From Jimgerdemannia flammicorona (Eukaryota): a stretch of 32,026 nt of DNA. Shown in pieces: positions 799 through 31,075 of this stretch (its first letter is position 1; every line of letters starts with the position of its first letter). Under the pieces are notes generated by a model, which was given only the letters and a program-made list of their open reading frames with translations, searched no databases and was not told where the DNA came from. Both the position numbers and the translations under genes were made by a program. The stretch is taken from NCBI GenBank assembly GCA_003990765.1, contig RBNJ01000367.1, positions 1-32,026 on the forward strand, written 5' to 3'.

Positions 799-1132
799 GG
801 ACACAACGTTTCACGATTCATGACTTCGGCTGTTCTGTTTCGGCGGTTATTACAATTGTTCCAGCCCTTGGCTGAACGACGTAGGTGTTTTAGCCGCGAA
901 ATTTTTTTTAATTTGTGACGTCATGGCTATTTTGTTTATATTAGCAAAGGCAACACATACTTCACTCATTGTCGTTCGCAGAGAGAATTATTTCTGGAGG
1001 CAATTATCACATTCTTTCATATATGCGCTTCATTCACGTCTTTTATCTCCTATTCCAGGCCACTAACACTCATTCCTTTCAAAGCCATTGGTTGAGGGTT
1101 TGACGGGCCTAGTACTCAAGTTTAATTGGTGG

Positions 1133-1354
1133 AAAACGCCTTTCTTACGAACATGCTCAAGGTACCGGGTTCTCCTCCCTTGGTTTGGACCGCTTACCTC
1201 CTCAGCTGGGTAGGGCTCATACCGGAACATGTTTCATGGAATGTCATGGCATCTCAAGGTGACGAGGAGTTCATCCGCTGAATTCCTAAGATCCTTGAAC
1301 ATGTGTGGCAGGAAGTGTCTTGCCAAGCACTCGTGGTTCGGACGACGCATTTTT
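1133..1354. other. Putative structured RNA segment (long branched stem plus hairpin)
   Basis: ACATGCTCAAGG 1151-1162 pairs with CCTTGAACATGT 1293-1304 (11/12). CTCCTC-CCTTG 1172-1182 pairs with CAAGG 1255-1259 and GAGGAG 1264-1269. Inner hairpin CTTACCT 1193-1199/GGGTAGG 1208-1214. Hairpin TGGCAGGA 1306-1313/TCTTGCCA 1318-1325. Ends at T5 (1350-1354). Confidence 0.4.
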
Positions 1355-1454
1355 AAGATAAGTATTTACTATTTATGGCTTTGTTCAAAGTTGTTAAGGT
1401 TGTTGGTAATGGTACTGAAAAATTCGCGGCCTTCTCCGTCGAGGGACGGGGACT

Positions 1455-1537
1455 GGCCGTTCTTGGTTGCTTTCGCGTTATAATTAGGACGTGACAAAAC
1501 CAACTGATGAGTCCCTTAAGCAAGGACGAAAACGGTT
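1455..1537 (+). ncRNA. Type III hammerhead ribozyme
   Basis: Core CTGATGA 1504-1510. Stem II GTCC 1511-1514/GGAC 1524-1527. GAAA 1528-1531. Stem III GGCCGTT 1455-1461/AACGGTT 1531-1537 (5 Watson-Crick + 2 GU). Cleavage triplet UUC, cut after C1462. Stem I TTGGTT 1463-1468/AACCAA 1498-1503, extended by TCGCGTT 1473-1479/GACGTGA 1488-1494. Confidence 0.93.
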
Positions 1538-1637
1538 CCAGATAATACACTACTGTATCAAATAAGTCCTTTAACAGGTATATTCTCTAAATTCTCGTTC
1601 GTCGGGAAGAGAGGTTGCAGAAATAACTGGTCGATTT

Positions 1638-1905: not shown

Positions 1906-2862
1906 AGTCACACATACAACCCTCGAACGAATGTTCCCTTCCCGATCGTGTCGTAGTCTGTATAAATGGCAGGGAATTGCGGTACTATTCTTTAGAGTGC
2001 AGTTGTTTAGTGGGTAATGGTAGAATACGTATCACGTCGTGGAATAGGAAGAAAAAGGGACCCAGACAATTATAACATTGGTTATAAATTGTACGTCATG
2101 AAGTAATAAACGCATGGTTTGCTGTCATCGTCTGTGTGCAGTGCTGAATCCTCAAACGGTCCTGTTTCAGGTTTGTTTGCTACTCACACACTCCAACTAC
2201 GATATCCGAAAGCCTTAACTTCAGCTACTATTCATTTGAACCTGAGGGCCTATCATCAAAGAATGGAATTTTATTGTGCCTTTCTGAGTTGGTCGTTTCC
2301 AATCAATAACTAGATACACGTCGTGACAAATTTGTGAATCATGAAGCTATACCAATCTTCTAAGTCTCTACCTTTCAAAAATGGAACTATTCTATAGTAT
2401 CCGAGCAGATTACTTCTGTCAAGTATACAGCAAAACTTTATTGAGATATATAATGTTATAGTTTGTTATAAAATAAAATAAATATATACAAAAAGTGCAG
2501 CAAAGGATTAACGCGTAATCCTGGATTTAATGAAAACAGACGTGTCCTGTCGTTCTCAGCCAATAACAGTTAGCTCAACAATAAGACTTTGAGAATGACT
2601 AAGTGTCATTCATGTGTTCAATTCATTTTAAGCGACCTGCATTACTTGCCGAAATTACTACCCAGCATAATATAATTTAGCCTCTCAATATTATATAAGG
2701 TGTTCAATTTGATACTTTATGATTCTGAAAATTATTTCTGTTTTATTTGTATCTATCTATTTCTTTCCCCCACAGATAGGGTCTCTGAGCTAGTAGCAGA
2801 TATTAACCATTTCAGAGTGTTTTATAGTAGATACTAATTTCTGAAGGAGTGCTATTCATAAT

Positions 2863-5800
2863 TGTTATAAAGTTAGAGAAAATAAGTAAAGCAAGAAGTA
2901 ATTGTTTATTGACTATGTAAGTTGTACTTTTATATATCAATATAGATAATATTTACATAATGATATAGTTAAGCTGTATTGCTATATATTGAGTTACTAT
3001 ATAACTAAGATATTTCAATACTTCTGCTCAATGAGATATATATATATAAAGAAATAAAATTCAAAATAAAACTAACTAAATTTAACTAATAGAATACTAT
3101 CTAAATGAGTAGAAAATGTCTAAATTCCCTACTTATAAGTATAAAAATAAGTAAAGATTATAGTAAAAGATTATCTTTAGCTGAATGAGTATAGATAGAA
3201 ATTGATAATATAGATCTATTTATAAATAAAGAGATGTAAGTAATGTTAGAGAGGCTTATTAGTACTCTAAAAGACTTTTTATTATATTCTATTATTATTA
3301 TTACTTGTTACTTACTTGTATAGAATTGCTCATAAGTCTTAATCCTTGTATATATAAGTTAAACTTTATCCTTAGAAGAACTTTAGTTAATAAATCTACT
3401 ATCATATACTCTATTGAAGTATACTCTAGATATATAGTATATTTTTCACATATTTCTATATGAAATAATACTATATATTAATATACTTCATTCTAACATA
3501 ATATATAGAGTTCTTTGCTAGAGTAATTATAGACTAGTTGTTTTACTAGAGTAGTAGAGTATTATTGCTTATATCCTAACTCCTTTAGAAGTTTATAAAG
3601 CTATATAAATTCCTTTACCACCATAGATAATATTTAATATTTACTTATATAAATGATATTACCACTGAAGATTGCTTGTATATTTGTTACAAAATAGCTC
3701 TTTTGCTGATTTTAAAGAGATATCTGATTATAGACTATCTGTCATCCAGATTACCTATAGTACTTCTACTTTATCTCTTATTATTACTATCTAAACTGAG
3801 CATATAGTATACCATACCTTTTATATATCTGAAAATATACTTAATTATCATCCAATACATATTATTATAGTATGAGAAGTATTACACTACTTTGTTGATT
3901 GTGAAATAGATATCAGGCATTATTCCTTATTTAAGATATATGTAAGTATAAGAGATTCTACTGCTTACTAATAAAGAATATTATTAGTTCTGAGTATAGT
4001 TTCAGATATGATATTACTGGACTTCTTTAGTCTTACAGATATCTCTATAAGGGTTTCAACTAGTTTATATTTATTTATGTCAAATCATTCAAGTATAGTC
4101 TGAATATAGAGTTCTTAACTTAGTTATATAGTCTATATATTTCTATTATATACATATAATGGATATATTACTCATATCTGTCATCTTGAATTCCTGGTAT
4201 AGTTTTGTCTTTATATTATTGATCTTATTCACTATTTCAATCAGAATAATATCATTCATCCAAATATCTAAGTATATCATTCCTGAGAATATACTAGATA
4301 TATATATTAGCTTCACAATGCTTATATATATCTGTTATCTAAGAGATATTTATTGATCTATTTATTTCAGATATATACTACTTACTTGATTTTGTATAAT
4401 ACTTTATATAGTTTATATATAAACTTATTTTCATTATTATTGTATAGTTCATATCTTTATAGCTAATATATAGCTCTGTATTTATGTTATCATTCAAGAA
4501 TGCTATCTCTTAATATCTATTTTATAGATTTCATAGTTATATTTGGCTATAATTATAAGAAGTATTATAAGCAAAGTAAGTTTGAATACTGGGAAGAATG
4601 TCTTATTGTAGTTTATATTATATCCTTATAAATATCCCTTTGCTATAAATTAAACTTTATACTACTTTATACTGCTCTAGCAATTATATTTGATTTTATA
4701 GACTCACTGAGATCTAATAGCTTACTTATCTATCAGGAGAGAAACTAGATCCCAGGTATTATTTTTGATAAGTAAACTATACTTCTCATCTATTGCTTAT
4801 TGTTATTATTTATTATTAGGTGATGATACAGCCTTATTATAGATTACAGACTTATCTATTATTGCTATGTAGATATATTTACAAGTTCTGATATAGTTTA
4901 CATACTGTTTATTATTTAATATATATTTCTTTTTACTCTTTCAAGAGATATTCTCATTGTTATTCTCATCTATAATTTCTATAATTCTTGACTCTGATAA
5001 TCTCATTGATATATATATGTACTGTACTGATATCAGTATAGGTACTAGAGATATCTTTATCAGAATTTTAACTACTATTTTAGATATAGAGATTGTTCTA
5101 CTTATCTTTGAAGTTAGTATAGATATTGCTGACTATACTATTAAATTAGATATAGAGATAGAAATTTTCATCTGAATTTTCTACTTAGTCTCCTTGAACT
5201 AAATATTATAAGAGATTATTGAATAGTATTTCTGCAAGTTCCACAGTCTATATGCTACTCTATTATATCTATAAATATATACTTATTTACTTTAGACTCA
5301 AACTTATCTTTATTATTACTATTATTTAGAATATAAGTCTCACTTCTAAATATATATAGATGTAAAATATCAGACTTGGATCTACTCTATAATTCTTCAA
5401 GAGTAAGATCAGTATTATTTTTAAATTATTGATTATTACTAAATTCCTTACTTAAAGTTTGAGAAATATAATGATTTCAGATATATACTACTATATTCAC
5501 TACTTTGGCCCAAAAAGAGTATAGTAAGCCAGCTATATTTATCATTATTTAAGCTATCTTTACTAATGTTTAATTAAAGCATTTTACTATACTATTCTAC
5601 TGAGATATATAGAGAGCTATTGTAGAGTATTAAATACTATGCTTCTTTAAGAAGTACATATCTAAAGACTCTTATTGATATATTCCTTACCATTATCTGA
5701 GTATAAAGTCTGTATCTTATATTCTGTTACATTCTTTATAGTTATATTGAATTTTTGGAATTTTCAAATATCTCATTCTTTATTATAAGGAAATATATAT

Positions 5801-6590
5801 AGACTTTATAAGTATAATTATTAATAAAGATAATAAAACACCACTTCTCTAAGTGTTTTAGAGTTTATATAAAGTAATAGATAGCTGTATGAATCAGGTT
5901 AAAAATACTAGTCATCCACTTTATCTATTTCTGAAAAGGTTACCAGATAGCCTTATTTGCTATATATCTATTATAAAAGAGTTTAGAGATATATAATCAA
6001 GTAATCCTCTTACTAAGCTACTCCTTATTATTTATTTTAATCTTATCTTGTAAATATATCCTAAGTATTTATATTATATATATCAGATATTCTCTCCAGT
6101 CATAGTTGAAGAATATATAGATGATACATTACTTAGTATACAATCAATTGTATATATATTTCTCTTTATATATATATACATATATTAACTTTTTATTATT
6201 CTTCATATTAATTACTGTTATACTTTTTGAATATATATTTACTCCTCTGACTCCTCAAGCTATCATCTGGCATATCAAGAAGAGGTTTCTATCTTTATCT
6301 AATATATATAGTATATTTACAAAGATATCTGAAGGTTTATTAATATTCCCATATAGATATAGAGTGCTCAAACTTCCTATATATAGAGAACTACTTATAG
6401 TATATTATCATATATTATATTATACTAGAATCAATAAGTTAGACTTCTTTGTTATATATATAAGTGTTTAGTATATAGCTTATATTAGTGCTGATACTAT
6501 TGATATTAGCAATACTGTTTTTTACTATCTGAAAATATTTTCCAAATTCACTCTTATATCTCCCTCTGCAGGTAAGTAGATTGCTATTAT
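2863..6590 (-). mobile_element. Ty1/copia remnant 1 (protease-integrase-RT-RNase H, PPT, 3' LTR); gag and 5' LTR missing
   Basis: Decayed minus-strand motifs: *LIDSS protease (~6430), YKYLGY (from HKRLGH, ~6065), LIHT..FIIFINNYT integrase (~5800-5900), TLAKNSIYYVRMKYINI..MIVDLLTKVL RNase H (~3370-3540). PPT TGAGCAGAAG at 3030-3021, then LTR starting TATTGAA (from TGTTG) at 3020. Left LTR boundary is approximate. Confidence 0.85.
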
Positions 6591-9500
6591 TATTGTAAAA
6601 GAGAGACACTTTATTGAAGTTGTATAGGTTACATATTTCTCTATATTACTGATGAATGACATAAGTCTGATGAAATGCCATAAGATCACATACTGGTATA
6701 TTGAGTTGTTATTTCAATACTCCCACTCAATGAGATATGTAACCTAAAAAAAAAATACAAACTAGAATAGAAGCAAACTAGAGTAAACTAAAAATGATTA
6801 ATGAAATGCTATTTAGATAACTGCAGAAGGTCAAAATTTGCTACTTATAAGTATGAAAATATATCCAAAAATACCCATAGATGAAGAATATAAAGAATTT
6901 AATATATATAATATACTTGTAGATGAGGGATATAATCAATATAGATATCAAACATATATATAATATATAACATAGTAAGGGAGGCTTTTTGCAGTCTGAA
7001 AAATATTCCATGATCAAGCAAATACTAGTATAAGACTCATTCCTTTACAATATAGCTTGAACTTTGGCTTTGGAAGAACTTTTGTAAGGAAATTGGTGAT
7101 CATATACTCTATGGAGATATATTTTAGGTGTATTGCACCAGTTTCTATATATTCATATATAAAATGATGCTGTATATTGATATATTTCATTCTGCTATAG
7201 TATACTGGATTCTTGGTGAGTACAATCATAGACAGGTTATTTTGGCATAGTATAGTACTTTCTTGTATAAAGCAAAGCTCCTTTAATAGTTTGCAGAGCC
7301 ATATGACTTCCTTTGTTACCAATATAGAAGAGATATCTAGTTATAGATCAAGGCTTATCTAAGTCTCTAGCCCAATTGTCATCATATATACTGAATAGCT
7401 GGATGCTATTACTTTTGCCATTACTCTTGCTTAATCCAATGTCACTATTGCCCAATGTGAGTATATAGTATACTGTATCTTTTAGGTACTGGAATATTCT
7501 TTTAATAATACTCTAATGTGAATTATTATAGCTGGAGGAGTACTGCACTACCTTATTTATGGCATATGATATATTAGACCTCATTCTAAGTATGAGATAT
7601 ATAAGAGAACTGACAACTTACCAATAGGAAATATTAGTACTATTCTTGGCAGGCATGTTGTCATTATCTTTGAGAGTAGTATCTGGCTTCCTTAACTTTA
7701 CAAAAGTCTTCATAGGAGTATCAACAGGCTTGTATTCACTTATATTAAAACATTCAAGAATTATTTGAGTATATATCACTTGTGAGAGATATATAATATA
7801 TATATTCCTATTATATATAATAGATATCCCTAAAAGAGAGAATGTATTGCTCATATCTATCATCTTGAACTCTCAGTATAGGGTTTTTTTTACTCTGTTA
7901 AGCCTGTTCTTACTGATAATGATGATGATATCATCTACTTATATACTAATAAATACTATGATACTATTGTTATAATACTGGATATATATACAATTATCTG
8001 CTTTACACTATGTAAATCCATTATTAAGAAGATATTTATTGAACCTTTTATTCCATAGGCATACTGCTTACTTAATACTATATAGTCTCTTATATAATTT
8101 ATATATGAACTTCCTGTTTGAGCTATCATATAGTTTAGTGTCTACATCATTGTTCAGAAATGCCATCTTGATATCTATTTGATGGATTTCGAGATTGTAT
8201 ACCATACTGATCATAAGAAGTATTCTAAGTGAAGTAAGCTTGAACACTGGCAAGAATGTTTCATCATAGTCTATGCCAAATCTTGCAAATAACCCTAGGC
8301 AATTAAATGAGCTTTATACTGCTCTACATTGTTATCAGTATTGCACTTTATCCTATATACCAACTTGAATCCAATTGCTTGATAGTTTGGCAGAAGAGAT
8401 ACTAGATCACATGTGTTATTCTTAATGAGTGAATTATATTCTTTATCTATTGTGCATTTCCATTTCTTATTGTCTACATTACTTATAGCTTCATTATATA
8501 TATGCTTCAGCATAGCTCATGTAGTTCTTATATTACTATCTAGGGCTTGCAAGTGTATTCCAAAAACTTTCTAATTCTGAATGAGTTTTTTGCCAAATAT
8601 TAGATCACTTTTTACCCTTTATAGAGGATCCTTTATCATTATATTCACTATCATCATCTTTATCTTTGATCTTGGTAATCCTTGGCTCAGGTAACTCTGG
8701 CTTAGATATATATTGCAGGTAATTTTCAACTGGCTATATTTGAAAAATATTTTTCTTTACTGCTGGAGAGGTAGATAACAGTTGTTCTAGTTGCTATATT
8801 TGTGCTAACTGGGATGTAGAGCTTGTTTCAACTAGTACTTCTATGTGGATCTCTGAGGCTTTTTCTCTGAACTACATATTATGCAAAATGACTATATGTT
8901 ACATACATAGATCTTATAGTCTATATGCTTTGCTAGAATATCCAAGAAATATATGCTTGCTAGCCTTGGGTTCAAATTTATCCTGGATAGTATTACTTTT
9001 ATCAAGGATATATGTATTATATCAGAATATATACAGATGGAATATGTTGGACTTTATTCTACTTTATAACTAAGAGTAACATTATTATCCTTATACTTAT
9101 TACTATTAGCTTTCTTACTGAGTAATTGAGATATGTATTGGTTACAGATATATACTACCATATTGATGACTTTGGCTCAATAGGAATATTCTAGTCTGGT
9201 CGTTACATTAATCTTCATTTGAGCTATTTTAATGATTATATGGTTAAATTACTTGGTTATATCATTTTACTGAGGCATATAAGGAGCCATTATTTGATGA
9301 CTTATACTGTACTTTATCAAGATTTCCCTGAATATATTATTGATGTATTCACATCTATTATCTGAGCATATGTCATATATTCTACATTCTGTTTTGTTCT
9401 TAATGATTGCCTTGAATTCTTTAAATTTCTCCAAGGCTTTGCTCTTTACTAATAGAAAATACACATATATATATCTTGTACATATAATCAATGATAAACA

Positions 9501-11260
9501 TCAGAAAATATCTCTTTGTGAAATATGATAGGGTATATATCAGGCCACATATATCCATATAGATTAGATTGAGAATCCCTAAGATATACTTCTGTTATTC
9601 TTCAAACAGTCACTTGGAGACTTCATTTTCCATATATGACTCACAAAAGCTATCCTTCAGATATATATGCTGATAATCCTTTTACTGAGTCACTTCTTAT
9701 CATATGTTTGAGGCTCATCTTACTGATATATCTTAAGTATTGATACCACATATTGGATATATTAGATGTAGTTATTGCATAAGTAGAGGCTCTCATGCCA
9801 TTTAACATCTTATTAATCATATAAAGATTTCTACATTTCAAAGCTATCATTAGCTTATCATCATGCAAATTATATATAGTGGTACCTTTTGCATATATAT
9901 AGATCTCTTTATTGCTATAGAATATTATTTTCTTATCAAAACAAGATTCTTTCTGATTTCTGAGATATATAGTACATTAATGAAGGTATTGGTAGATTCT
10001 ATGATATTGCTATAGAGATATATCCCCATGTTTCTTTTTCCTTAAGTATAGATGATATTATTATCTCTCAGTTTGATAGATACAGAGTATTCAAATGGTT
10101 GGTATATAGAGAACTATTCCCTGTATGGCATTATGTATTGTATAGCTCTAGAATTCATAAATCAGATATTATTGTTATTAGTTATATTAGCAGATTTGCT
10201 GCTGGGTATATAGTTGATGTCATCACTACTTTTTATTAGCCAAAAAGTGTTTTGCTGACTGGAATTTGTAGATGATGGGTTGATAGATTTGGTGGTAGAT
10301 CTTGTGGTGACAAAACTGGCAGAACTGGTACTAGTAGAATTGATAGGACTTTTAGGTCCATAAATGTTATCTTTCTGATCAGATTTCATAGATGTGGTAG
10401 ATTTCACACTGGCAGAACTAGTATTGGAGCTTGTGATGGAACTAGTGGCTATACAAAAAATAGATTACTGCTTTCATCAGTTTCAGTAGTATTTGTATTG
10501 CCATGCTTCTCTTTGTCTTGATAGTTGATTCCACTGCTCTCATATGTATTACCAATACTGGCTTCCATATTGTTGCTTATTTTCACTACTCTCCTTATCA
10601 TTCTCCCAATGATAACAATGGCATTTCCTGCTATAGTATTCACAGTAACCATCATACTTGGTTGATTGATTGGTGGACTGGTTATTATTATATTGTTGAA
10701 CTTGGGTTTGAGTTCATTAATCTATTTGATCATACTTTTGACCTTATTTGATACTGCCACATCCATGAGACCCATAGAGGGCATTTTCATCATTATCATT
10801 AGCACTCTTTCCTTGATGCATTTCCTCATTTATAAGGCTTATTATTACATAGACATAGTTCAAAAGACTGCTGCTTTCATATATAGCTGTGATGACAATA
10901 TTATATATGTTCAGAAGTCCTCTTGTAAGTGCTATAACCTTATCTTTATTGCCAATATAGTCTGCAGATATACTGATAGAGTTTACTTGATTAACTAGAT
11001 CATCAATGCAACTGGCATATTTACAGATACTCTTCTTTGGCTTAATTCAAAGATTGAATAGCTGAGATTTCAGGTGAAATTAATTCAATATAGATACTTA
11101 TATGTATATAATACTTGTGTAGGGCTTCCCACACCTTGTGAGCCATCATGGTATACATTATAAGCTTTATTTGTAAGTTTGACAATATGAATGTGATCTT
11201 ATATAATGCTTGGCAATTATTTGCAGGGTTATAATCTTGAATTAGCACTTATGGCTTTAT
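6591..11260 (-). mobile_element. Ty1/copia remnant 2 (gag-PR-IN-RT-RH, PPT, 3' LTR); 5' end truncated
   Basis: ORF fragments: RNase H 7014-7322 (KNPVYYSRMKYINIQHHF...MITNFLTKVL), RT 7618-8513 (IHQIDIKMAFLN, YKAHLIA), integrase 9267-9491, pre-integrase 9650-9868 (WYQYLRY), protease *FMNSRA ~10150, gag ~10650-11250. PPT TGAGTGGGAG 6729-6720, LTR starting at 6719. Confidence 0.9.
7014..11250 (-). pseudogene. Copia gag-pol polyprotein pseudogene
   Basis: Domain motifs in copia order (PR-IN-RT-RH), interrupted by many stops and frameshifts. Confidence 0.88.
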
Positions 11261-14792: not shown

Positions 14793-15826
14793 GCGGGCAG
14801 TCCATGGTCTTAAATCCTTGGCTGGGTAACTTGGGTCTCGAATGGCGGCGGTTGGGTAATGTTTTCTTTCTGTAGCAAGAGAAAATTCTTTAACTCAAAC
14901 TTCCAAGTGATCTGTTGCTCTAGGTTGTTATCTTGTTCTCAGAATTTATCCGGTCTCTTGGAGGCAGTGTGTTTTTTCTGTAAAACTGTCTGACTTGCGG
15001 GCAGTCCGTGGTCTTGAATCCTTGGCTGGGTCTTGGGTCTCGAATGGCAGTCGAATGGCAGCAGTCGGGTAACGTTTTCTTTCCATGGCAAGAGTAAATT
15101 CTTTAACTCAAACCTCAAGTGATCGTTGCTCTAGTTATCTTGTTCTCAGAATTTATCCGGTCTCTTGGAGGCAGTGTGTTTTCTCTGTAAAACTGTCTGA
15201 CTGAATTGCGGGCGGTCCATAGTCTTGAATCCTTGGCTGGGTCTCGGGTCTCGAATAGCGGTGGTCGGGTAATGTTTTCTTTCCATTGACAAGAGAAAAT
15301 TCTTTAACTCAAACCTCGAGTGATCGTTGCTCTAGTTATCTTATTCTCAGAATTTATCTGGTCTCTTGGAGGCAGTATGTTTTCTCTGTAAAACTGTCTG
15401 GCTGAATTGTGGGCGGTCCATGGTCTTGAATCCTTGGCTGGGTCTCGGGTCTCGAATGGCGGTCGAATGGCGGCAGTCGGGTAACGTTTTCTTTCCGTGG
15501 CAAGAGAAAATTCTTTAACTCAAACCTTGAGTGATCGTTGCTCTAGTTATTTTGTTCTCAGAATTTATCCGGTCTCTTGGAGGCAGTGTGTTTTCTCTGT
15601 AAAACTGTCTGACTGAATTGCGGGCAGTCCATGGTCTTGAATCCTTGGCTGGGTCTCAGGTCTCGAATGGTAGTCGAATGGTGGCGGTCAGGTAACATTT
15701 TCTTTCCGTGGCAAGAGAAAATTCTTTAACTCAAACCTTGAGCGATCATTGCTCTAGTTATCTTGTTCTCAGAATTTATCCGGTCTCTTGGAGGCAGTGT
15801 GTTTTCTCTGTAAAACTGTCTGACTG
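14793..15826. repeat. Tandem array, five units of ~201-211 bp
   Basis: Unit starts GCGGGCAGTCCATGGTCTTGAATCCTTGGCTGGG (with variants) at 14793, 14997, 15208, 15409, 15620. Confidence 0.95.
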
Positions 15827-15829
15827 AGG

Positions 15830-15861
15830 TTTATTCACTCTAAGAATATGGGGTATTTATA
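15830..15861 (-). promoter_or_regulatory. LTR TATA box (TATAAATACCCC) followed by AATAAA
   Basis: TATAAATACCCC 15861-15850 and AATAAA 15835-15830 on the minus strand. Same arrangement at 31313-31281. Confidence 0.65.
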
Positions 15862-15980
15862 CAAGTTTGCTAGCTATGGGGGAGGGGGCGCGACTAAGGC
15901 TAAGGTATACTATATTGTGGCGAACTTATGCTATTGGTTTGCATGATGTGAGGTGCAGGCTATTGTTTACTACAGATTGG

Positions 15981-16298
15981 GTTGTAGGGGATAGCCATGC
16001 TGGATTCGGACCTACTGACAAAATGCTGAAAACGGTGGTACTGGGTAGCAATGCTGGATTCGGATGAGCTGACATGATACGATGATTGTTACCAGAAGCA
16101 GTTGTGGAGGGTGGCAACGCTGGATTCGGATGAGCTGACAAAATGCTGAAAATGGTGGTACTGGGTAGCAACACTGGATTCGGATGAGCTGACATGATAC
16201 AATGATTATTGCCAGAAGCGGTTGTGGAGGGTGGCAACGCTGGATTCGGATGAGCTGACAAAATGCTGAAAACAGTGGTACTGGGTAGCAACACTGGA
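15981..16298. repeat. Tandem array, ~2.7 units of 120 bp (54+66-bp subunits)
   Basis: CTGGATTCGGATGAGCTGACA core recurring; 16021-16080 and 16141-16200 are near-identical. Confidence 0.93.
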
Positions 16299-16347
16299 AA
16301 CAGACTTGCTGACAAAAGCTGGGTTCTCACGGCTGATGGGCGGTACT

Positions 16348-17334
16348 CTAGAGAAAATAGTACCCTTCGTCTGTGGCAGGCAAATCTTGCTGGGTTGTGA
16401 TTTCTTCTTCATCATATCTCTCCTCAAAGGGGGGAAGCGCTGGCCAAGAGGTGAGGGGGTAGAAAAGTGGCCAGTCATCTTCAACAACATTTTCCAATCC
16501 CTGAACTACTTGAATGCAGACAGAGGACTGGTAGACTCTCTGTTGCTCCTCTTCTTCTTCTGAAGACTCATCAGTTTCAGTGTCAGAGGGGGTTTCTTCA
16601 GGAGCAGGGCCTTGGAGTTCTTGGGCCTCCTCTTTAAAGACAGGAACTTCTTGGGCTTCTTCTTGATTCAGTTCCCAAATGATGAGGTGTAAATTGTGGC
16701 TGATAGAGTGGTGGGTGGTTGGGGTAGCTTCAACGGGTACCTCTATAGTGATGGGTGGTCCTTCAAATATCTCCATAAGACTCATTAGGTGACCTTGATG
16801 GTTGTCTCGGAGTGGGGTGGTGTGGAAACCTGGTTGAGTAGGTTTAGTTTGTTGGCTTCCTACGGTGATGCAGTTGCTGCCAATAGCATTGGCTACTTCA
16901 GATTCTATCCAGTCAGCATCTTCAGTTGAAAGACAGGAGAGACTGCTAGCTGTTACTCCTTGCAAGTGTGCTATAGCCCAGGGGATATGGCGGAAGATTT
17001 GATGGACATGAAGGGCTCTCTTGATTAGCCGGCTGGTGGTTAACATTTCGGCAATGAGGTCTTCCTGGTCGTCTTCTTGAGTCTCATTGTGGAGGTGGTG
17101 TCCGATTTCATAGTCATACCAGAGGGTCATTCGTTCAGTAGTATCTTTGAGCTATTGGGTCATTATATACCGGTAGTTAATGAAGTGTCCAAGGTCCTCA
17201 GTGTAGAAGTTCAAGTGTTCGGAAGTATCTGGGCACCAGATGGCCTTCTTGATAGCTTCAAAGATCAGGGTCTTTGGGCCAGGCAAAGGGGTAGAGCAGC
17301 GGGAGGTCTGGTTGGTTCAGCGAATGGAAGGCAT
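16348..17334 (-). pseudogene. Unknown ~328-aa protein with acidic C-terminus (HQIFRHxPW family), two nonsense mutations
   Basis: The 260-aa ORF 16348-17130 extends in frame to ATG 17334 through TAG (17154-17152) and TGA (17319-17317), each one C>T step from CAG/CGA. Homologous to the ORF at 31524-32024. Confidence 0.72.
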
Positions 17335-18326
17335 TGTGTGGTGGGTACTTGGTTCTTTGGTGCCGATCCTTGAGGCAGAGTATGGTTCCTTAAATAATGT
17401 AGTCTTCATTTTGGCTCAGATCATCTTGTCTTCTTTTGGGATGATCACCTAATGGGTCAGGCTATCTATTTGATTGTCACGCCATTATGTCATCTGATCT
17501 TAGCAGTCACCGGTACTCCATTATTAATTGTGTATGTCACAATAGCAACAAACAACTATCTATCAAGCCCTTACTCCAGACTTATAACTATTACTCCAGC
17601 AACTTACACAGACTCAAAGAACATCATCACACTCTGCACCAGTACCTCAAGTAGTACCAGTAATACCACTACTAGTAGTTCAACCACCTCCAGTAAACAA
17701 TATAGCAAACCAATAGATTCTAGACCTTATAGCTCAGAGGGCTATAATGACAGCAACCATCACTGCCTTAGCTAAACAGATCTGACCAATAAAAAATCTG
17801 AGCCTATCTACCTTCAATAGTACTGCACAAGAAGTTCAAAGCTTCATTAGTATAGTTGATACTAATTTCAAAGCTAACCAATAGACCAATGAGTGAGTTA
17901 CTGACTGCCTTCTGACAAATAATCAAGACCACACTCTGAAATAACTCTTTGCTACTACTATGGCCTATGTCTGTTGAATTGTTACATTCTTCTAAGGACC
18001 TGCCAAAGAATGGTGGTGAACTCTTCCTAAAAAACCCCTCATATGGGATACTTGACCTACAATTGTTGTCAAAATATAGCAAATAATATCTCAGAATATG
18101 GAGTATATCCTGCAGCTTCTGGACTCAAACAACTCATAATTGCTCAATACTACAGTGAAACTCTGATTGCCAAATCTCAAGTATATAAAACTCTATAACC
18201 TTAAATTTGATATATATAGAAAGAAGGAATTCAAAACCTTCTATACAAAACTCAAGTCACTCCTGAATACCATTGACCTAGAATATATTATCAATAATGA
18301 AGTACAAAATAGTACAAGAGTAGACC

Positions 18327-18790
18327 TGTAATAATTTTACAGTCATATTTAGTCATAGTACATTTTCATGTCTTTTAGTTAGTCTTTTCTTATCATTTCT
18401 TGAATATTCTACTATGTTCCACCACCTTCTACTTGCTTAGAAACCTTCTCTTGGTGCACAGATACCATTAGAACATTCTTGTCTTTCCTTAGTACCAAGT
18501 ATCTTATCTTAGCTAGTCATGGAACCTTTCAGAACATTGTAGAATAGTATTAGTCAGCTTTGCTGAGAACCTATTTCTTGGCATTTCTCTTTCTTTCCAA
18601 AATCTTTCTGGATCTTTCTTTCAGATCATATATAAATATCCTTGTTCTCTACGTAAATAAAGCTCAGAATATTTTCTCTCAGAAATTCTTCAAGAACACT
18701 TGAACCTTTAAGTATCTCTTCAAGCTACTTTAGGCCAACTAGAACTTTCAGATTTAGCTGCTTCCTCTTAAAGAAACTAGAACTATTATA
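18327..18790 (+). repeat. 5' LTR
   Basis: Direct repeat of 23968-24417, differing mostly by transitions. Confidence 0.95.
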
Positions 18791-18880
18791 CTTGATAGCA
18801 GTGGTATCATTATATCTTGCCTTATTAAGAAACCTCACATGAATTCAGAAACCAGTCACAAATAGTTATACAAACCCAAA

Positions 18881-21800
18881 ATGAGCCATGAAGAGTCAGT
18901 CTACCAGCCAGACCCCTCTGCTATAGAAGAAGTAAGAGGATTATAGCTCAACATAGAAGATATGATCAATGCTATGGTCCACCAAATCCAAGAACTTCAA
19001 GCACAACTAGAACAGCAGAAAACAAGAACTGTGAGTATATCATATTCTGCTATAGTATTAGTCAGTTTTAAGTCACTCAAGCCAGATATCTTCAATAGCT
19101 ATTAAGGAGAGCTATCTACAGATGCATGGACCTTCCAGTTAGACCAATACTTTAAGCTCATAAGAATGGAAGAAGACATGTAAGTCTAATTTTCCACCAC
19201 ACTTCTCTGAGGAAATGTAGCTATCTAGTGGTATAATTATATCATGGTTACCTCTGTACACTTATATATATATATAAATCAGAGACTGAGAAGCCTTCAA
19301 GAGAGCCCTTCATAAGCAGTTTAAGCCTGCTAATGCTACTAAACTAACTAGGGACAAGCTAGCAAACATCAAGTAACTCAAGTCTGTACAAAGTTATAAT
19401 GCACAATTCTTGTCAATCCTACTTGAGCTATCAGTGATATCTAAGGACAAAAAGATAGACTGCTATATCCAAGGCTTAAAGGGAAATACATAAGTCAAGG
19501 TCAAGCTAGAAGAGCCCAAAAACCTTGATGAAGCCATGAGAATTACCAATAGGTTTGATGTTATTACCTTTGGTAACTACTTTGAACCAGAACACTACAA
19601 GAAGAACTACTTTAAGAACTACCACAAGAACCAATCAAGGACAGTTGGCCTGGCACTAATGGACTTAGACATTATGAACAAAAAGAATACCAAGCTTATC
19701 TCTGAAGAAAAGGACTGCTTAAAGAAATCCAGGGCCTGTTTCTTCTGTTGCCAAACAGGACACATTGCAACTAAATATCCTAAGAAGACTAGTGAACCCT
19801 CAAGACCAGTCACTGTATTGTCCAAAGACACATCTGTTAACCCCACCACCAGTCAACCTAAGCTCAAGATCAAGAAGCTTCATCTGAGAGTCCAGATCCC
19901 TTAATATCAAACAGAAGGAGCTATTGGTCTTGACCTACACTTTATCAAACAAGTCACTATTTCAGCCAAGGGCCAAACTCTGGTACCTACTGGAATTGCA
20001 GTTCAATGTCCTGAAGGACATTATGCTAGAATTACACTATGATTAGGACTCAGTGTTAAACATAATTTAGATATAGATACTGGTATCATTGACCCAGACT
20101 TTTGAGGACAAGTTCAAGTTCTGCTTATCAACCAGAAGGATCAAGACTATATAGTCAAGAAAAGAGACTGAGTCATACAAATGATCTTAGAAAAAGCCAG
20201 TCAACTCAAGATTACAGAAGTCCAAGAACTCTCTGAGACCAAATAAGATTAAAAAGATTTTGATAGCACTGATCAAGCAGTAAGTCTTAGTGAAAATCAA
20301 GCTCAAGCTATACTCATTTTCAAAGGTCTAGTCAAAGGAAAAGAAGTTCAAGTACTCATAGACAGCAGAGCTGCAGAGAACTTCATCAATTAGAATCTCA
20401 TTGAAAGTTTCGAGATCCTTACCAAGTCTATACCTAAGAATTATAGTATAGTTACTACAGATGATACTCTGCACCTCATTGAGTCATTTGCTACCAAACT
20501 ACTCATCAAGATTCAGAAATATTGAGAATGAGTAGACTTTGAGGTTGTACCACTAAGAGATCATAACCTGATCTTAAAAAAAACCCTGACTTATAAAATA
20601 CAACCCAGACATCAATTGGTGTAAGAATGAAGTCATCTTACTTTAAGATGGAGCCAATATCACTATCAAGATAGACAAGACCATGAGCAAGACCCAGATT
20701 ACAATACTATCAGCTATATAGTACAAAAGAGCACTCAAGACAACAATGCATGCCTTTATTGTAATGGTCTATCCTAAGAAATAAGACAAGAGACTATTAG
20801 TTAATGAAAGTGTCAAGTTACTGCTAGAAGAATTCAAGGATATCTTTTCAGACAAGCTACCTGGTCTACCACCTATATGAGAAGTTGATTATGAAATTGA
20901 ACTGACTCCAGGAGCTATACTACCCAAGAAACATATATACTGCATATCACCACTTGAAATTGAAGTAGTCAAGAAAGAACTAGAAGAACTACTTACATGA
21001 GGAGCCATTCAGTCAAGCAAATCTCCTTATGGCTCACCAGTCTTATTCATCAAGAAGAAGGATAATACCCTGCAAATATGTATAGACTATCATATACTCA
21101 ACAAACTCACTGTTAAGAACTGCTATCCACTACCCTTAATTGATCAAATCTTTGATGCTCTTAAGAATACCAAGTACTTCACCAAGTTGGACCTTATGTC
21201 AGAATACCACCAGATTCGAATCAAGCCAGAAGATATTCCCAAGACTGTATTCATGACCTCCTTTGGACTCTATGAATTTCTGGTCTTAGCATTTGGTCTC
21301 ACCAATATACCTGCCACATTTCAGACCCTGATGAATAAGATATTCAAGGACCAACTATTTATTTTCCTATTGATATATCTCAACAATATCCTGATCTTTA
21401 GTGCAACTAAAGAAGAATACCTCAAATACATTTGAATAGTTCTGGAGATCCTGCAAAAATACAAGCTTTATACCAAGCTCAAGAAGTATGAATTCTTTAA
21501 GGAACAAGTTGAATACCTTGGCCATATTATCTCTATATAAGGTATTCAAGTAGACCCACACAAAATAGAAGTAATTAAAGAATGGCCCATTCCATCAAAC
21601 CTTACAGAACTCCAATCCTTCCTTGGTCTAGCTGGCTACTACTACTGCTTTATCAGAAACTTCTCTAGTATTGCTGAGCTACTGACTAATCTCATGAGGA
21701 AGACTCTACACTCAGACCACTATATACCCTATATCTGAGACCTCTTCTGTCAATAAGTCTTTTAAGAACTCAAGAACTACCTGACCCATGCTCCAGTCCT

Positions 21801-23657
21801 GATAATGCAGATCAAGGCCTAAAATTCACAGTCACCACTAATACATCAAATTTTGCTATTGGAGCAGTCCTATCATAAGATGATGGCAAAGAATATCATT
21901 CCATTGCTTTCAAGTCCCATAAGTTAACTCTAGCTGAACAAAAGCTAGTCACTTATAAGAAGGAACTACTGGCAATAATACATGTACTAGACTACTGGCA
22001 ATGCTATCTAGAAGATATTGAGTTTGATGTCATTACTGATCATCAATCTCTCAAGTACATCAATACTTAATCTACTCTATTATATCTATAAGCCAAGTAG
22101 AGCCTCAAGCTTCAAACCTTCAATCCAATAATCATCTACAAGTCTGGCAAGACACTTGTAGTACCAGATACCTTATCAAGATACTCAGACCTTGCCACAA
22201 TTATGCAGGTTACCTTGGCATCAGAATTCCTAGACCAAATTAGACAAGCTTACAAAGAAGACATAGTTGCTACTAGAGTTTTCTCAAATGAGCTCAAGGA
22301 TACATATACTGTTGAGAATAACTTGATCTATCATCAAGATTAAGTCTATCTACCTGAAAACATGAATCTACACTATAAGGTTTTATAAGAACACTATGAC
22401 TCCCCTCTTACTAGTTACCTGAGAATTGAGAAGACTGTCAAGAATATCTAACACTACTACTATTAGCCAAGCATGGTCAAGGAAATCAAGAACTATATTG
22501 CTAGCTATGATCTATATCAGCACAACAAGTCTACCAATCAAGCACCAGCTAGTTTGCTACAACTATTACTAATTTTCACTAAGAAATTCAAGCAAGTTAC
22601 CATAGACTTTATAACTCAACTACCATGAACTCAATCTGGTACTGATGCTATCATCATATTTGTTGACTGCCTGACCAAGACTATGGTTGCTGAACCAACC
22701 ACTATCAATACTACTATACCTGAGATTGTAAGAATCTTCTTCAAGTCTATCTTCTGTCACTATGGTCTACCATGAGTAATTGTCAGTAATTGTGACCCTC
22801 AAGTTCACTAGTTACTTCTGACAAACTCTCTTCAAGACTCTGAAAACCCAATTAGCTATGTCTACTGCTTTTCACCCACAAACTAATGAACAAACTGAGT
22901 ACATGAACAGAATTCTAGAACAAATACTTAGAAACTATATTTCTTATAAGTAAGATGATTGAGACCACTATCTGACTTATATAGAGTTTATATATAACAA
23001 TACTGTCCAATTATCTACTGATCTTTCTTCTTTCTGGTTACTCCATAGTCAAGATCTCAAGACCTCTACAAGTCTATTCTTTTTTAAGAAAAGCAGTTAA
23101 ATACAAGTCTCAATCACCAGGAACCTTACAGACAAAATGGATGAACTACTCAAGATTGCTACTATGAATCTTCAGAAGGCTCAATAGCATCAAGCCAAGT
23201 ATACTGATAAGAAATGCCATGATATCACTTACACTATTGGAGATCAAGTTTTACTGTCTACTGAATCTCAAGATATAATCTCAAGTCAACCACCCTTCAA
23301 ACAAGTTCTAACCTAAATATATTAGACCTTTCAAGATTACCAAACAAGTCTCTGTATCCTCCTACTACCTCAAGCTACCTGAAACCATGAGAGTATACCC
23401 AGTCTTTCATGTGTCACACCTCAAGATCTGGAATCAGTCACTGCTCTACTCTGATCAAATTCCTAAGCCTTCTATCCCTATGATTATTGAAGACCATATT
23501 GAGTATGAAGCTAAACAATTAAATCTGCTACTACTGTCCTGAATACCTAGTCAAGTGGATGGATTACTCTGAATATGATACTATCTGAGAACCACTGGTC
23601 AACCTCAAGAACTCTCAAGATCTAGTTTAAGACTTTGAGACAAAATGCATTATCTAA
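18881..23657 (+). pseudogene. Gypsy gag-pol pseudogene
   Basis: gag DAWTFQLDQYF and knuckle CFFCCQTGHIATKY; protease LIDSRAAENFI (~20360); RT AFGLTNIPATFQ...YLNN (from YLDD, 21187-21435); RNase H and integrase (FHPQTNEQTE ~22880); chromodomain EYLVKW..*EP..NL (~23540-23610). Many stops. Confidence 0.93.
19860..20273 (+). pseudogene. dUTPase domain between gag and protease (nested element)
   Basis: All five trimeric dUTPase motifs in decayed form: AIGLDL, RITL*LG (PRSG), GIIDPDF*G, RD*VIQ (GDRIAQ), *D*KDFDST (RGxxGFGST). Confidence 0.92.
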
Positions 23658-23967
23658 TCTCTATAGTGACTTCCTTGGATTGTTGACAACCTTTAGCAAT
23701 AATCAGTGCCTTATGTATTAGAAGTTTACTTTAGGACCCCAGAACTAGTAGAACATTTAATGAATAAGAAGTCCACTGAAATAAAGCTACTAGCTGGGTT
23801 TAAACCCCTCCTAGTTGGTTAGTCTGGTAATAGATTCTCTGTTCTATATAAGGATAGCCAATCTCTGCCAATGTACTGATATAAGTTTGAGAAATTTTGG
23901 TTAAGTATATCTAGTTTTGTGTTACCTAAGAACTTAATGAGAATGTTAGTTCTTAAGAAGGGAGGGA

Positions 23968-24417
23968 TGTAACAATTTTACAGTCATATTTAGTCATAGT
24001 ATATTTTTGTGTCTTTTAGTTAGTCTTTTCTTATTATTTCTTAAACATTCTACTATGTTCTGCCACCTTCTACTTACTTAGAAACCTTCTCTCAGTACTC
24101 AAACACTACTAGAACATTCTTATCTTTCCTTGGTACCAAGTACTTTGTCTTAGCTAGTTATGAAACCTTTTAGAACATTGTAGAATAGTATTAGTCAGCT
24201 TTGTTGAGAATCTATTTCTTGGTATTTCTCTTTCTTTTCAGATCTTTCTTTTAGATATATAAATATTCTTGTTCTCTGTCTGAATAAAGCTCAGAATATT
24301 TTCTCTCAGAAATTCTTCAAGAACACTTGAACCTTTAAGTATCTCTTTAAGCTACTTTAGACCAACTAGAATTTCCAGATTTAGCTGCTTCCTCTTAAAG
24401 AAACTAGAACTGTTACA
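23968..24417 (+). repeat. 3' LTR
   Basis: TGTAACA...TGTTACA, preceded by the PPT. Confidence 0.95.
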
Positions 24418-24865
24418 AGACTATTTATTTGATATACTACCTGAATAGTTTATAAGGAAAATCTGAGAACAAGGACACCTAGTTGGTTGTGATCACCAAT
24501 AATGATGCCTGGTAAGAATCAAGACTATGGTCAAGTAAATCCTAACAGCTAGACCAATTCTGCCTCAAAGACAATTCAATAACAGAGAAAAGACTTGGAC
24601 CAAGAAAGAAGAACCCAAGTATAAAACATTCCAAGCTTCCTCTATATCCATCTTATAGACACCCTGAAATCCTAAACCTATCCAGCCAAGTACCTTCAAG
24701 AAACTTATCAAAGGAGAAAGAAATAAACTTTGAAGAAGTAGAGCATACTTATATTACTGAAAGACAGGATATATGACCAGTGCCTACCTCAACTGAAAAC
24801 CCCAAACAGCAATATGAGCAACTGTTACTACCCTGTACCACCTCAACAATCTGACTACTAAGATA

Positions 24866-25263
24866 GTAAACTTTGTCAAGTTAAGGCAAACTACTAAAGC
24901 CCCAACCAAAGAAAGTCAAAAAGTGGCTGAATACAATCTATATATAGCCAAAGAAGCTATAGTTTCCAACTGAGAAGTTAAGTAAGTCTATAGAATTCAA
25001 ATCTCTAAAGGATATATTAGAAGAATATACTATTGCAGCAGTCTAATATTGAAAGAACTCTCAGTAGAAGAAGGAGTTATTGATGAGGATTATACAGGTA
25101 AAATCATTATCCTCATCCAAAACCATAGTTAGACACTCTTCAAGATCTCTATTGATTTCTGCATCACCTAGATCCTATTCAAAAAACTGAGTCAACCCTG
25201 ACAGTTAAAGAAGTCCCTGAACTACTGCCTACTATCTGAGGATTCAAAGGATTTAGCTCATCA
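24866..25263 (+). pseudogene. dUTPase domain between gag and protease (host element)
   Basis: VNFVKL...VAEYNL (AGYDL), EGVIDEDYTGKI, CIT*IL (RIAQ), then after a frameshift *GFKGFSSS (RGxxGFGSS). Confidence 0.88.
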
Positions 25264-26279
25264 AACATGGCTCCAGCCTAACCCACTATGAATAAGAAAG
25301 AATAATTCTATAAGAAAATTAAAGATAGATATATACCAAGTGGCTAATACCTCTATGACATTGAAATGTACTCTTTCTGAATAATTGATGATTGCTTCTC
25401 TTATATTAATGAACTAGCCCAAAGGAGAACCAATAGAAGGAAAGCTCTTACAACCAAAATCACTACTATTGAATCAGACAAACTGCTTACACTCCAAACT
25501 TTTGTCAACTAAGTATCTGTTAAGATTATGATAGATATATAGCAGTGCCTCAGACAACTTCATCAATGAAGAAACAGCCAATAGATTCAAAGTCCTGACC
25601 TCTTTGGTACAATAGACTTAAGCAGTTACCATAGCTTATGAAACCTCCCATATTATTAGCAAGGAAGTCTGTATCTTATCCTTCCAAATTAGCGACTACT
25701 AATTATATATTACTCTTTAGATCATACCACTTCCTGATAATGAAATCATTCTTAGGATCTCATGGTTAAAACAAGAGAACTCTATAATTGATTGGGTAAA
25801 CTATTCCTTAACTATTAAGAAGAGATGCCATAACTTCAAACTGCAAGATATGTAAAAAAGACCCACTTGATTCTAGTGACTCTGGACCAAAGATCATCCA
25901 TATCAATAAACTATAACTCAATAAACTGACTAAGAAATGCCCTCTCTTTGTTATCTCCATCTGACCATCCAAAGAAGAACTCAAGAACTCTGAAGAAGAC
26001 TTTTCCAAAGTTGACAGCTATGTCAGACTATTACTCTAGAAATTTCAATATATATTCCTGAACTGAACTGCAAAACCACCTATATCTGTTATTATTAATA
26101 ATCAGAAAAAATATCAAGTTGAACAAATTCTCAACAAACACAGTCACAAGAACCATCTAAATGGTATAATAATACTAGATCAAATTAGAAGATCTCAATG
26201 AGGATATCAAAAGCTAAGAAGGAGAGAGTTGTAAGCATATAATCTCTAAGTCATCAAAATCACATATTACTCTTAAAAC

Positions 26280-27425
26280 CAATTCAGAAACCACATGTGA
26301 GACTATAAAACAAGTTACTGAAGAGATTACCTAGTTATACAAAATATACCAGCAAGCATAAGGACTTACTGCCAAGATATAAGAATACTAGAAGAAGTAC
26401 TATAACCATAAGACTGACCCTGAATCTCTACAATTAGTTTTGGTGTACTGTACTATTACAAAAGGAAACTGAAGTACCAAACTCAAACCAAGATAAGAAG
26501 AACCCTATCTTATCTATTAAAGGTTCATGAATCACACTTATCAACTCAAGACCAAGATATACTGTAACTATATAAGACCTCATTACTTAGTAGAAGCAAA
26601 ACATATTTGAATAATCCTATTTATTCTATCTGTATCACCTCTATTAGAGAATGATAGATGCTTCATCTGAACTCAAAAAAGCTAACATTGTTGAAACTAA
26701 TCTCAAGTCTATCTACATGATAGATATTACTACTAGAAATTGCCTCAGATTATAGAAAATATCATTTTCAAGAGATTTGAACCCCCAGCCACAATAATGA
26801 GAGCCCTTGCTCTAGACAAGAATGGCCAGTTCTTGTAAATATGCCAGCAGTCTAAAAAAAAAGAGAACCAAGACCTGTTATTCTTATACAACCATCACTA
26901 TCAAGGACAGCTTTAATTTTGTAAGGGGCAGATGTGATAACACCTTTGAAACTGATGATATCAGGAGTCAGAAAACTGCTCAGACATTATCAGAGATGAT
27001 ATCATCAATAGTGATGTTATTGAGGACTATTCAGACAGTGTCTAAATCTATAAATAGCCTAGCAGTCATTAGTATAGTTAGATTAGCCTTGTATAATATA
27101 ACTGTAAACTGACTCAGTAGTCAGACAATCTCTTGATATGTCAGATTACACTTGTACTATATAACTGCATTCTGACTCAACAAGGTACTAAGTATTATAT
27201 TCATATTCAGCCTAGTTCAGATAGCCTCTCACTAGTATAAATACCCCCTCCCCCAGACCTCAGAATCTTGGACTTAAATATACAAAAATAATTTTGAACA
27301 CTTTCCCACAATATCCCTTCACATAACTACTCCTAGTATAGCAATATCATGAATAGTAAATAAACCTATTTAATAACCCACAAACCACTCTTAAGTAAAT
27401 CTACACCCTGTTAGATCCCACTCCT
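26280..27425 (+). mobile_element. Fragment of another gypsy element: integrase C-terminus, PPT and LTR, inside the host 3' LTR
   Basis: KKYYNHK...LVLVY...KLKPR*EEPYLI...TYQL (GPY/F region) ~26390-26550. PPT AAGGGGCAGA 26923-26932, LTR start TGTGATA 26933, TATAAATACCCC 27236-27247. Boundaries approximate. Confidence 0.65.
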
Positions 27426-27426
27426 A

Positions 27427-27732
27427 ACCATATCATGAAATTTCCTAATTGGATATTGTCTGTAGTAATATATCAATTCAACTAAGCCAGTTTTAGTTTC
27501 TTGAACTTCCTGAAATACAGAAAATCCTGAACATCCAGAACTAGTCCAAAAAAGGACTTTGGTTGAGATATCAATCTGATCTTGAAATCAATAAGTATAG
27601 AGGACATACTATATATAAAATTGATCTTGATCTAAAGAAAACAGTCTTCTAGAATATCCAGAATATCCAGAACTTCCAAAAAAAACCTTTCAGAACTATA
27701 TAATGGTTATCTTAATAAGTAATTCTCTTATA
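27427..27732 (+). repeat. Distal part of host 3' LTR
   Basis: Direct repeat of 13087-13384. Confidence 0.85.
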
Positions 27733-29200: not shown

Positions 29201-29529
29201 TGGTCTGTAATTTATAACTAAGTATAAGTGACTAATTTAGTAACTATGGTGAGATTTGTAATTGTAATCTTTGTCTAATGGTTTGTGATCAAAACTACTT
29301 TGTGATCAGGATTTCAATTGCTAAGTAATAATCAGTATTAATGTAGTACTGATTGCTACAGTACTGATTGCTGGAGATAAGCTGAATATTATTTTTTACA
29401 TCATTTATATTGTTCATTACATTCATTGTTTGTATATTATATATTATACTCAATTATGACATCATTGTCAAGTTATATAATCTCTTATCATATATATATT
29501 GTATCTCATCTGTTCACTTATTCTATTAT

Positions 29530-30715: not shown

Positions 30716-30729
30716 AAGTAATATTCCCT

Positions 30730-31075
30730 AAAAGGAGAGAGAGTATGATATTATAATAAATATAGTAAATAGTATTCTAAAGGATTTAATTTATCATGTA
30801 ATAGTTTGATTTAAATCTCAAATCTGATATAATTTAAGCTAACTCAGATCAATCTAAATTACTCAATCTGAATTACTCAATCTAAATTACTTAATCTAAA
30901 TTCTTTAATCTGAATCCTTCAATTTGAATCACTCAATCTAAATTACTTAATCTAAATTCTTTAAGCTAAATCCTTCAATCTGAATTCTTCAATCTGAATT
31001 CTTTAATCCAAATCTGCTATATGATTTATATACTAGATACTCTCATATAAATATATATACAAATATACAATATAT
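30730..31075 (+). mobile_element. PPT and start of a decayed LTR, interrupted at 31076
   Basis: AAAAGGAGAGAGAG 30730-30743 followed by TATGATA (probably from TGTGATA) at 30744. Confidence 0.5.
30851..31014. repeat. 14-bp minisatellite, 11 full units plus a partial
   Basis: AATCT(A/G)AATT(A/C)(C/T)T(C/T) in 14-bp phase from 30851. Confidence 0.93.

Follow-up and report, generated by a model that had tools for sequence, protein, structure and literature searches.

Genomic setting and structure of the ribozyme

The window (the whole 32,026-nucleotide stretch of DNA analyzed here) carries one hammerhead ribozyme, located on the plus strand near its left end. In a domain scan covering 32 of the 58 window reading frames of at least 70 amino acids, all domains identified belong either to copia (RVT_2, rve, gag) or to gypsy (RVT_1, SH3_Tf2-1), although distant or decayed copies could escape such a scan. 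The decayed copia block is on the minus strand at about 7000–11050, and the decayed gypsy element has long terminal repeats (LTRs) at 18327–18788 and 23968–24415. These blocks flank the ribozyme island, consistent with the original prediction that it sits amid dead retrotransposons. That prediction also described the element as fungal. This label is unsupported, since every named best match of the gypsy reverse transcriptase is from a green plant or green alga, a pattern that annotation bias could explain.

The ratio of observed to expected CpG is 1.06 in the island (270–2450) versus 0.01–0.05 in the element blocks (2450–11000 and 18000–31000), and when the two LTRs of the gypsy element are compared, transitions account for 39 of the 41 differences. 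The element blocks show the pattern of CpG-targeted hypermutation. Classic RIP was rejected because the indices are unlike those of CpA-targeted RIP and the depletion is specific to CpG. Elsewhere in the window, two minus-strand frames (16348–17151 and 31524–32024) are paralogous (34% identity over 98 amino acids, E = 3e-14) and match no Pfam family. The first of these adjoins tandem repeats of 120 and about 210 bases (14838–16340).

Positions 1453–1541 (+) contain every hammerhead core base and three helices, as can be read directly from the letters. Stems I and II end in loops, stem III stays open, and the cleavage site lies near the 5′ end, which defines the type III topology. The 5′ strand of stem III (1453–1461) is followed by C1462 at position H17, and this assignment is supported by reading, folding, and covariation among type III copies. 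The inner part of stem III pairs CCGUU with AACGG (1457–1461 with 1531–1535; reading and fold), whereas its outer part, obtained from the context fold, pairs CUGG with CCAG (1453–1456 with 1538–1541) across a two-base bulge at 1536–1537. The bulge and outer helix replace two G-U pairs that had previously been drawn on this stem. By direct reading, the A15.1-U16.1 pair is A1531-U1461, and H17 is a C and not a G.

Stem I comprises a proximal helix, UUGGUU/AACCAA (1463–1468 with 1498–1503; reading, fold, and covariation), and, by reading and fold, an internal loop GCUU/CAA (GCUU at 1469–1472) and a distal helix (1473–1479 with 1488–1494) capped by a loop at 1480–1487. The core segment CUGAUGA (C3–A9; 1504–1510) leads into stem II, GUCC/GGAC (1511–1514 with 1524–1527), in which G10.1-C11.1 is G1511-C1527. 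Stem II closes the nine-base loop 2, CUUAAGCAA (1515–1523), and is followed by the core segment GAAA (1528–1531). All of these elements are on the plus strand, and those from the core through loop 2 to GAAA were read directly. The internal loop of stem I and the nine-base length of loop 2 had both been anticipated.

When 1455–1537 is folded alone, the minimum free energy structure is the three-way junction (−22.8 kcal/mol, z = −1.88), and 9 of 200 shuffles are equally stable. The minimum for 1430–1545 is likewise the hammerhead junction (−39.2 kcal/mol, z = −2.71), a stability equaled by 1 of 200 shuffles. The motif is a genuine, sequence-intact type III hammerhead ribozyme, and the complete core and three helices originally proposed agree with both the direct reading and the fold of the isolated motif. 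The predicted cut is between C1462 and U1463, the same site named at the outset, and the RNA would cleave itself there whenever the catalytic fold is adopted.

The bare CTGATGA..GAAA pattern is not rare, with three matches in the window versus 0.97 expected. A full descriptor requires the core, G10.1-C11.1, U16.1, H17, and three helices, and was applied in strict and relaxed versions. It has one match in the window and none in 60 Mb of random sequence with window composition or 60 Mb with island composition, in either version. The lack of matches in 120 Mb of random sequence, together with the covariation in the family described below, rules against a chance motif.

Only one ribozyme copy is present in the 32 kb even when eight substitutions are allowed, and a covariance model built from relatives also has one match, so the single copy first noted holds across the window. 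On the minus strand, there is no descriptor match in the window and no Rfam match at E values up to 1 in 250–2500. No flanking direct repeats or LTR pair surround the ribozyme in 250–2600, and no target-site duplication was found at the ribozyme module. A primer-binding-site motif has four matches versus 2.26 expected, and none is beside the ribozyme. The possibility that 1424–1462 is a decayed neighboring hammerhead was discarded because a comparison by eye with the sequence one period downstream gives 13 matches in 39 bases, which is near random.

No Rfam model matches the window at its gathering threshold. RF00008 (Hammerhead_3) covers viroids, satellite RNAs, and plant LTR retrozymes, and shares the type III topology and core with the window motif. 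In E-value mode it scores 15.5 bits (E = 1.1) versus a gathering score of 48.5, with an alignment that skips the long stem I, and thus the model named in the original prediction does not recover the motif at threshold. The score is low because stem I carries a 25-base insert, and the model cannot span the resulting 41-base stem I region. Relatives of the motif score 23–36 bits with RF00008, and compact type III relatives align over the full model at 30–36 bits. This indicates that the low score in the window reflects the insert and not a defect. Rfam thresholds miss real hammerheads with an extended stem I: Among 20 relative loci, one passes any model (L046; Hammerhead_1, 42.4 bits). The bases of the core and the compensatory helix changes that characterize the hammerhead class (Rfam clan CL00010) are both present.

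Other ribozyme or RNA families have no Rfam match in 250–2500 at E values up to 1, and a tRNA search found none. The exact 28-base core has no match in viral contigs or in prokaryotic genomes. Looser pattern matches in viral contigs (nine loci, L001–L009) are unrelated hammerheads with other stems and contexts and were dropped. Literal sequence strings have no match in searchable paper text. Because figures and supplements lie outside such a search, a published drawing of the family may well exist.

Relatives of both permutations

Across 64 metagenome loci, there are 71 exact matches to the 28 bases that make up the core, stem II, and loop 2. Out of the whole 32 kb, only 1449–1539 matches these loci, and thus the ribozyme is conserved without its flanks. 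The majority of relatives are circularly permuted, type I forms with an open stem I and only a minimal hairpin (such as ACCGGUC or ACGUC) for stem III. For 43 distinct copies of type I, the share of paired cells is 93.4% versus 21.7%–49.8% with the partners slid, the covariation score is reached by none of 500 shuffles, and all six pairs of stem I change on both sides. A covariance model built from the type I copies finds 101 sites in 65 sources and one in the window. Stem II variants among the relatives also covary (GACC/GGUC, GCUC/GAGC, GUCU/AGAC).

The window topology is shared by L020, L013, L058, L034, and L039, the last with three copies. For seven type III copies including that of the window, 90.8% of cells are paired versus 21.5%–45.8% in slid controls, and eight pairs in stems I and III change on both sides. 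Copies with compensatory stem changes, which the original prediction had proposed to look for, therefore exist in metagenome loci in both type I and type III form. The closest type III relative, L020, is 83% identical over 88 bases. It matches the window copy in its stems, with stem III reaching 11 bp, and its flanks are unrelated.

Type I relatives are found in tandem, with three copies 183 bases apart in L021 and spacings of 189 bases in L069, 70 and 150 in L047, and 99 in L073. These arrays look like Penelope-like elements and non-LTR retrozymes, which fits the earlier suggestion that the motif belongs to a repeat-borne family. The same prediction set the motif apart from the type I hammerheads of Penelope-type elements, a contrast that fails because those are its closest sequence relatives. 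In L039 (465–2036, −), three type III copies lie 472 and 1048 bases apart, each after a GC-rich hairpin, and this is possibly a type III, non-LTR retrozyme-like array. Two of the L039 copies share an identical 69-base hairpin-plus-ribozyme unit with no LTR-like repeat. Some metagenome hammerheads are arranged back to back with almost no cargo, at start-to-start distances of 56–58 bases (L033, L043), 70 (L047), 77 and 99 (L073), and 83 (L038, with which L063 is grouped). Some of their partners have decayed cores.

Beside a type I copy in L035 is a short-chain dehydrogenase that is 81% identical to that of the bdelloid rotifer Didymodactylos carnosus, and its other named matches are from Adineta and Rotaria. 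This likeness identifies at least that group of loci as rotifer DNA. No reverse transcriptase was found in 64 reading frames of at least 130 amino acids from the 64 loci, a search that decayed or distant copies could escape. As judged from these sequences, the family is widespread, eukaryotic, and repeat-associated, and includes both the type I and type III permutations.

Hammerhead repeats of bdelloid rotifers have already been described (PMC7229834, PMC4209133), and published accounts place type I hammerheads of metazoan repeats in non-LTR retrozymes and in Penelope-like or Athena-Terminon elements (PMC7229834, PMC4209133, PMC8557442). The window motif is identical to such ribozymes in 28 bases of core, stem II, and loop 2, and has the same register, with the 5′ strand of stem I followed by GCU(U). 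The relatives found here also resemble the metazoan type in their tandem arrays and minimal palindromic stem III (ACCGGU). In contrast, the window copy is circularly permuted, with stem I closed and stem III open and 9 bp long. It is also solitary and preceded by a hairpin, and the relatives of the window's retrotransposons are plant- or alga-like and not animal. Eukaryotic hammerheads from animals are mostly classed as type I and those from plants as type III, whereas one family here spans both permutations. A single family with both permutations in unrelated hosts is a natural series relating permutation to stem III length and tertiary contacts.

One such contact is predicted between stem I and loop 2. 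GCUU (1469–1472), located directly after the proximal stem I helix, is complementary to AAGC (1518–1521) in loop 2. The search pattern for relatives fixed loop 2 and left the stem I side free. At least four bases complementary to loop 2 are present in 31 of 41 intact type I rows, and the rotifer group (seven rows) has three. Where loop 2 is changed and the core is intact, the stem I side changes with it: UAGC is matched by GCUA (L018:439–494), GAGC by GCUC (two L039 copies), and AAC by GUU (L052:1479–1551). In L043:941, the loop change produces a G-U pair. Loop changes without compensation (L038:205, L063:153, L018:253, L056:1849) occur in copies with broken cores. The GCUU-AAGC pseudoknot is thus supported by three different compensatory variants, and the stem I–loop II contact foreseen in the original prediction takes the form of this covarying interaction. 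Hammerhead pseudoknots linking stems I and II are already known, with a figure of ∼40% of hammerheads given in one report (PMC3088659).

Contigs of a probable transcript and a predicted upstream hairpin

Three public runs (X1–X3) were compared with 250–2600, all in the form of contigs, which carry no RNA-end information. X3 is an RNA library, X1 and X2 are taken to be RNA by guess, and X1 may be the source of the window itself. Stretches without contig cover were left out as evidence. An X3 contig spans 1083–1341 without difference, and its nine loose bases match the window only at 989–997, which implies a GC-AG intron at 1000–1084. An X1 contig that covers 1905–2114 passes directly from 1574/1577 to 1905/1908, and the stretch that it skips, 1578–1907, has GT..AG ends. 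Both splice-like junctions are on the plus strand and have short sides of 9 and 27 bases. The ribozyme therefore probably lies in an exon at 1085–1577 (+), between the GC-AG intron and a GT-AG intron at 1578–1907, and a probable downstream exon extends from 1908 to 2114 (+). These exons are graded as probable because the junctions rest on 9 and 27 bases and X1 and X2 are RNA by guess. An AATAAA at 2105–2110, just before the last contig ends, is a weak hint of a 3′ end. ATG-started frames in the spliced model reach at most 84 codons. These contigs suggest that the ribozyme is probably exonic within a plus-strand transcript (989–2114) that is spliced and apparently non-coding. The downstream intron contains a CCAT microsatellite and 43-base repeats (1640–1905).

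In X1 and X2, many contigs with differing flanks pile up on 1435–1592, with loose ends before 1486–1497 and behind 1531–1574. The differing flanks suggest that the core is present in several sequence contexts of that organism. Summed contig depth, which is not a copy number, is 780–1390 over the core versus 13–40 in the flanks. Variant contigs carry C1476U and U1492C, and both changes keep the distal stem I pairs. One X1 contig with its loose end before 1496 has the 5′ strand of stem I plus GCUUU joined straight to 1496, and this would be a ribozyme copy without the 22-base distal stem I extension.

An 8-bp hairpin, UCUCCGUC GAGG GACGGGGA (1433–1452, +), is predicted to abut stem III directly. 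It is more stable than 99.9% of the 28-base windows in the first 3 kb. In every type III lineage, a hairpin ends 0–10 bases ahead of stem III and ranks among the most stable 0.1%–9% of local windows. Just upstream, GCGGCC (1426–1431, +) is predicted to pair with GGCCGU (1455–1460), so that an inactive, extended hairpin would trap the stem III 5′ strand. This pairing is in the minimum free energy prediction for every context that starts at or before 1420. In contexts that include 1426–1431, the catalytic fold is 5.8–9.0 kcal/mol above the minimum and the probability of stem III is near 0, both values omitting pseudoknot energy. Because the pseudoknot is left out, the alternative fold does not deny activity in context.

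A similar sequestration is predicted in L013 and L058, where GGCCU pairs with GGGUC and the catalytic fold is 6.2 and 6.8 kcal/mol higher, respectively. One pair of the L013/L058 hairpin changes on both sides. Much less sequestration is predicted in L020 and L039, and the hairpins of L039 and L034 adjoin stem III without sequestering it. The original prediction considered the ribozyme probably active. The intact core, helices, and pseudoknot partner are in agreement with this view, whereas transcripts that include 1426–1431 are predicted to sequester stem III. Control of the ribozyme by GCGGCC is an extrapolation from these models.

Origin and possible function

On balance, we favor the explanation that the motif is a solitary type III copy of a hairpin-plus-ribozyme module (∼1424–1541) from a repeat-borne eukaryotic family, residing in a non-coding island that is transcribed. 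The module, small and either mobile or duplicating, would have landed here as a single copy, by retroposition or duplication, and would now sit in an exon of a spliced non-coding plus-strand RNA, within an island of normal CpG content flanked by decayed copia and gypsy elements. Since there is no target-site duplication, it is the unrelated flanks alone that point to a mobile origin. The catalytic fold, steadied by the pseudoknot, would cut the RNA to leave a 5′ piece ending in the hairpin and a 2′,3′-cyclic phosphate and a 3′ piece with the ribozyme body. The upstream GCGGCC may keep the ribozyme largely off. With only one cleavage site, no unit-length or circular RNA would be released.

The same arrangement could instead be a module kept by the host, in which cleavage makes the hairpin-protected 3′ end of the upstream RNA or silences the transcript, and in which the helix between GCGGCC and stem III is the gate. 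We regard such a domesticated, self-gated signal as unlikely, even though several features suit it. The stable hairpin precedes stem III in all type III lineages, L013 and L058 are likewise predicted to sequester the cleavage strand and have one hairpin pair that changes on both sides, the type III topology would leave only nine extra bases on the upstream product, and the upstream part is represented in the X3 RNA contig. However, no orthologous locus was found, L020 sharing the ribozyme but no flanks, and the gate is derived from energy predictions alone. The hairpin in L039 and L034 abuts stem III without sequestration, and the hairpin of the module could do no more than stack on a stem III that is short.

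It is improbable that this locus is a retrozyme or Penelope-like retroelement that makes circular or unit-length RNA. Relatives do occur in tandem, including the three type III copies of L039, and metazoan non-LTR retrozymes, those of rotifers among them, have been described (PMC7229834). Those retrozymes are tandem repeats of ∼150–450 bp with a type I hammerhead, and the locus has a single type III copy. Plant LTR retrozymes have two LTRs with hammerheads, a primer-binding site, and a polypurine tract, a set not found here. The term retrozyme used in the original prediction hence does not suit this locus, which has no second hammerhead, no LTR, and primer-binding-site matches at chance level. 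The window frames scanned yielded only copia and gypsy domains, with no telomerase-like reverse transcriptase of the kind that accompanies pseudo-LTRs in Penelope-like elements, although decayed or distant copies could escape.

We are equally doubtful that the ribozyme is an inactive relic, intact because of its recent origin and locked in vivo in the alternative hairpin with no effect. The energy advantage of that fold is in its favor, and the alternative hairpin would form first during transcription because its strands precede the 3′ strand of stem III. Nevertheless, the core, helices, and pseudoknot partner are all intact, whereas broken-core copies exist in metagenome loci, and the paralogous changes in the run contigs preserve distal stem I pairs. 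An endogenised viroid-like RNA, another of the original suggestions, or a ribozyme-bearing RNA virus would account for a topology typical of viroid-like RNAs. Viroid-like RNAs have ribozymes in both polarities and a small circular genome, but here the ribozyme is on the plus strand only, viral contigs lack the exact core, and no polymerase gene was found. The random-sequence searches and the covarying family oppose a chance motif as well, and we consider an origin of either sort very improbable.

Single conserved hammerheads in host transcripts are not without precedent. A type III hammerhead pair is reported in Arabidopsis transcripts (PMC7761336), and mammals have intronic hammerheads with pseudoknots (PMC3088659). 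Like these, the window motif is a conserved motif in a host transcript with no tandem repeat, and it shares the pseudoknot between stems I and II with the mammalian examples. Unlike these, it is apparently exonic in a non-coding RNA and derives from a family with multiple contexts in the same organism. Among fungi, hammerheads have been noted in interspersed repeats of Yarrowia lipolytica (PMC3088659) and, as type I variants whose helix III is large, in fungal Penelope-like elements such as those of Serpula lacrymans (PMC4209133). Repeat association and monomer stability are common to these and the window motif. The fungal ribozymes are type I, however, and lack a recognizable contact linking stem I to stem II.

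A more elaborate possibility is a self-gated switch in a spliced non-coding RNA, with GCGGCC as captor of stem III until something frees it, a hairpin-capped 3′ end on the upstream RNA after cleavage, a design that recurs in the independent lineages L013 and L058, and a family that crosses kingdoms. This full combination is rather unlikely. If it were true, a ribozyme family identical in 28 bases in rotifers and a non-animal host would have crossed between kingdoms. The single copy, in what is probably a spliced non-coding RNA and beside a hairpin predicted to compete with it, offers a concrete and inexpensive system in which to examine regulated self-cleavage in a eukaryote.

The L020 locus has a gene close to its ribozyme. 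The ribozyme (322–400) lies ∼190 bases upstream of an RCC1-repeat gene (590–2317, +) on the same strand. This gene is intron-less and includes a SUMO-like domain, and the neighboring protein has distant relatives only, with 27% identity to fungi.
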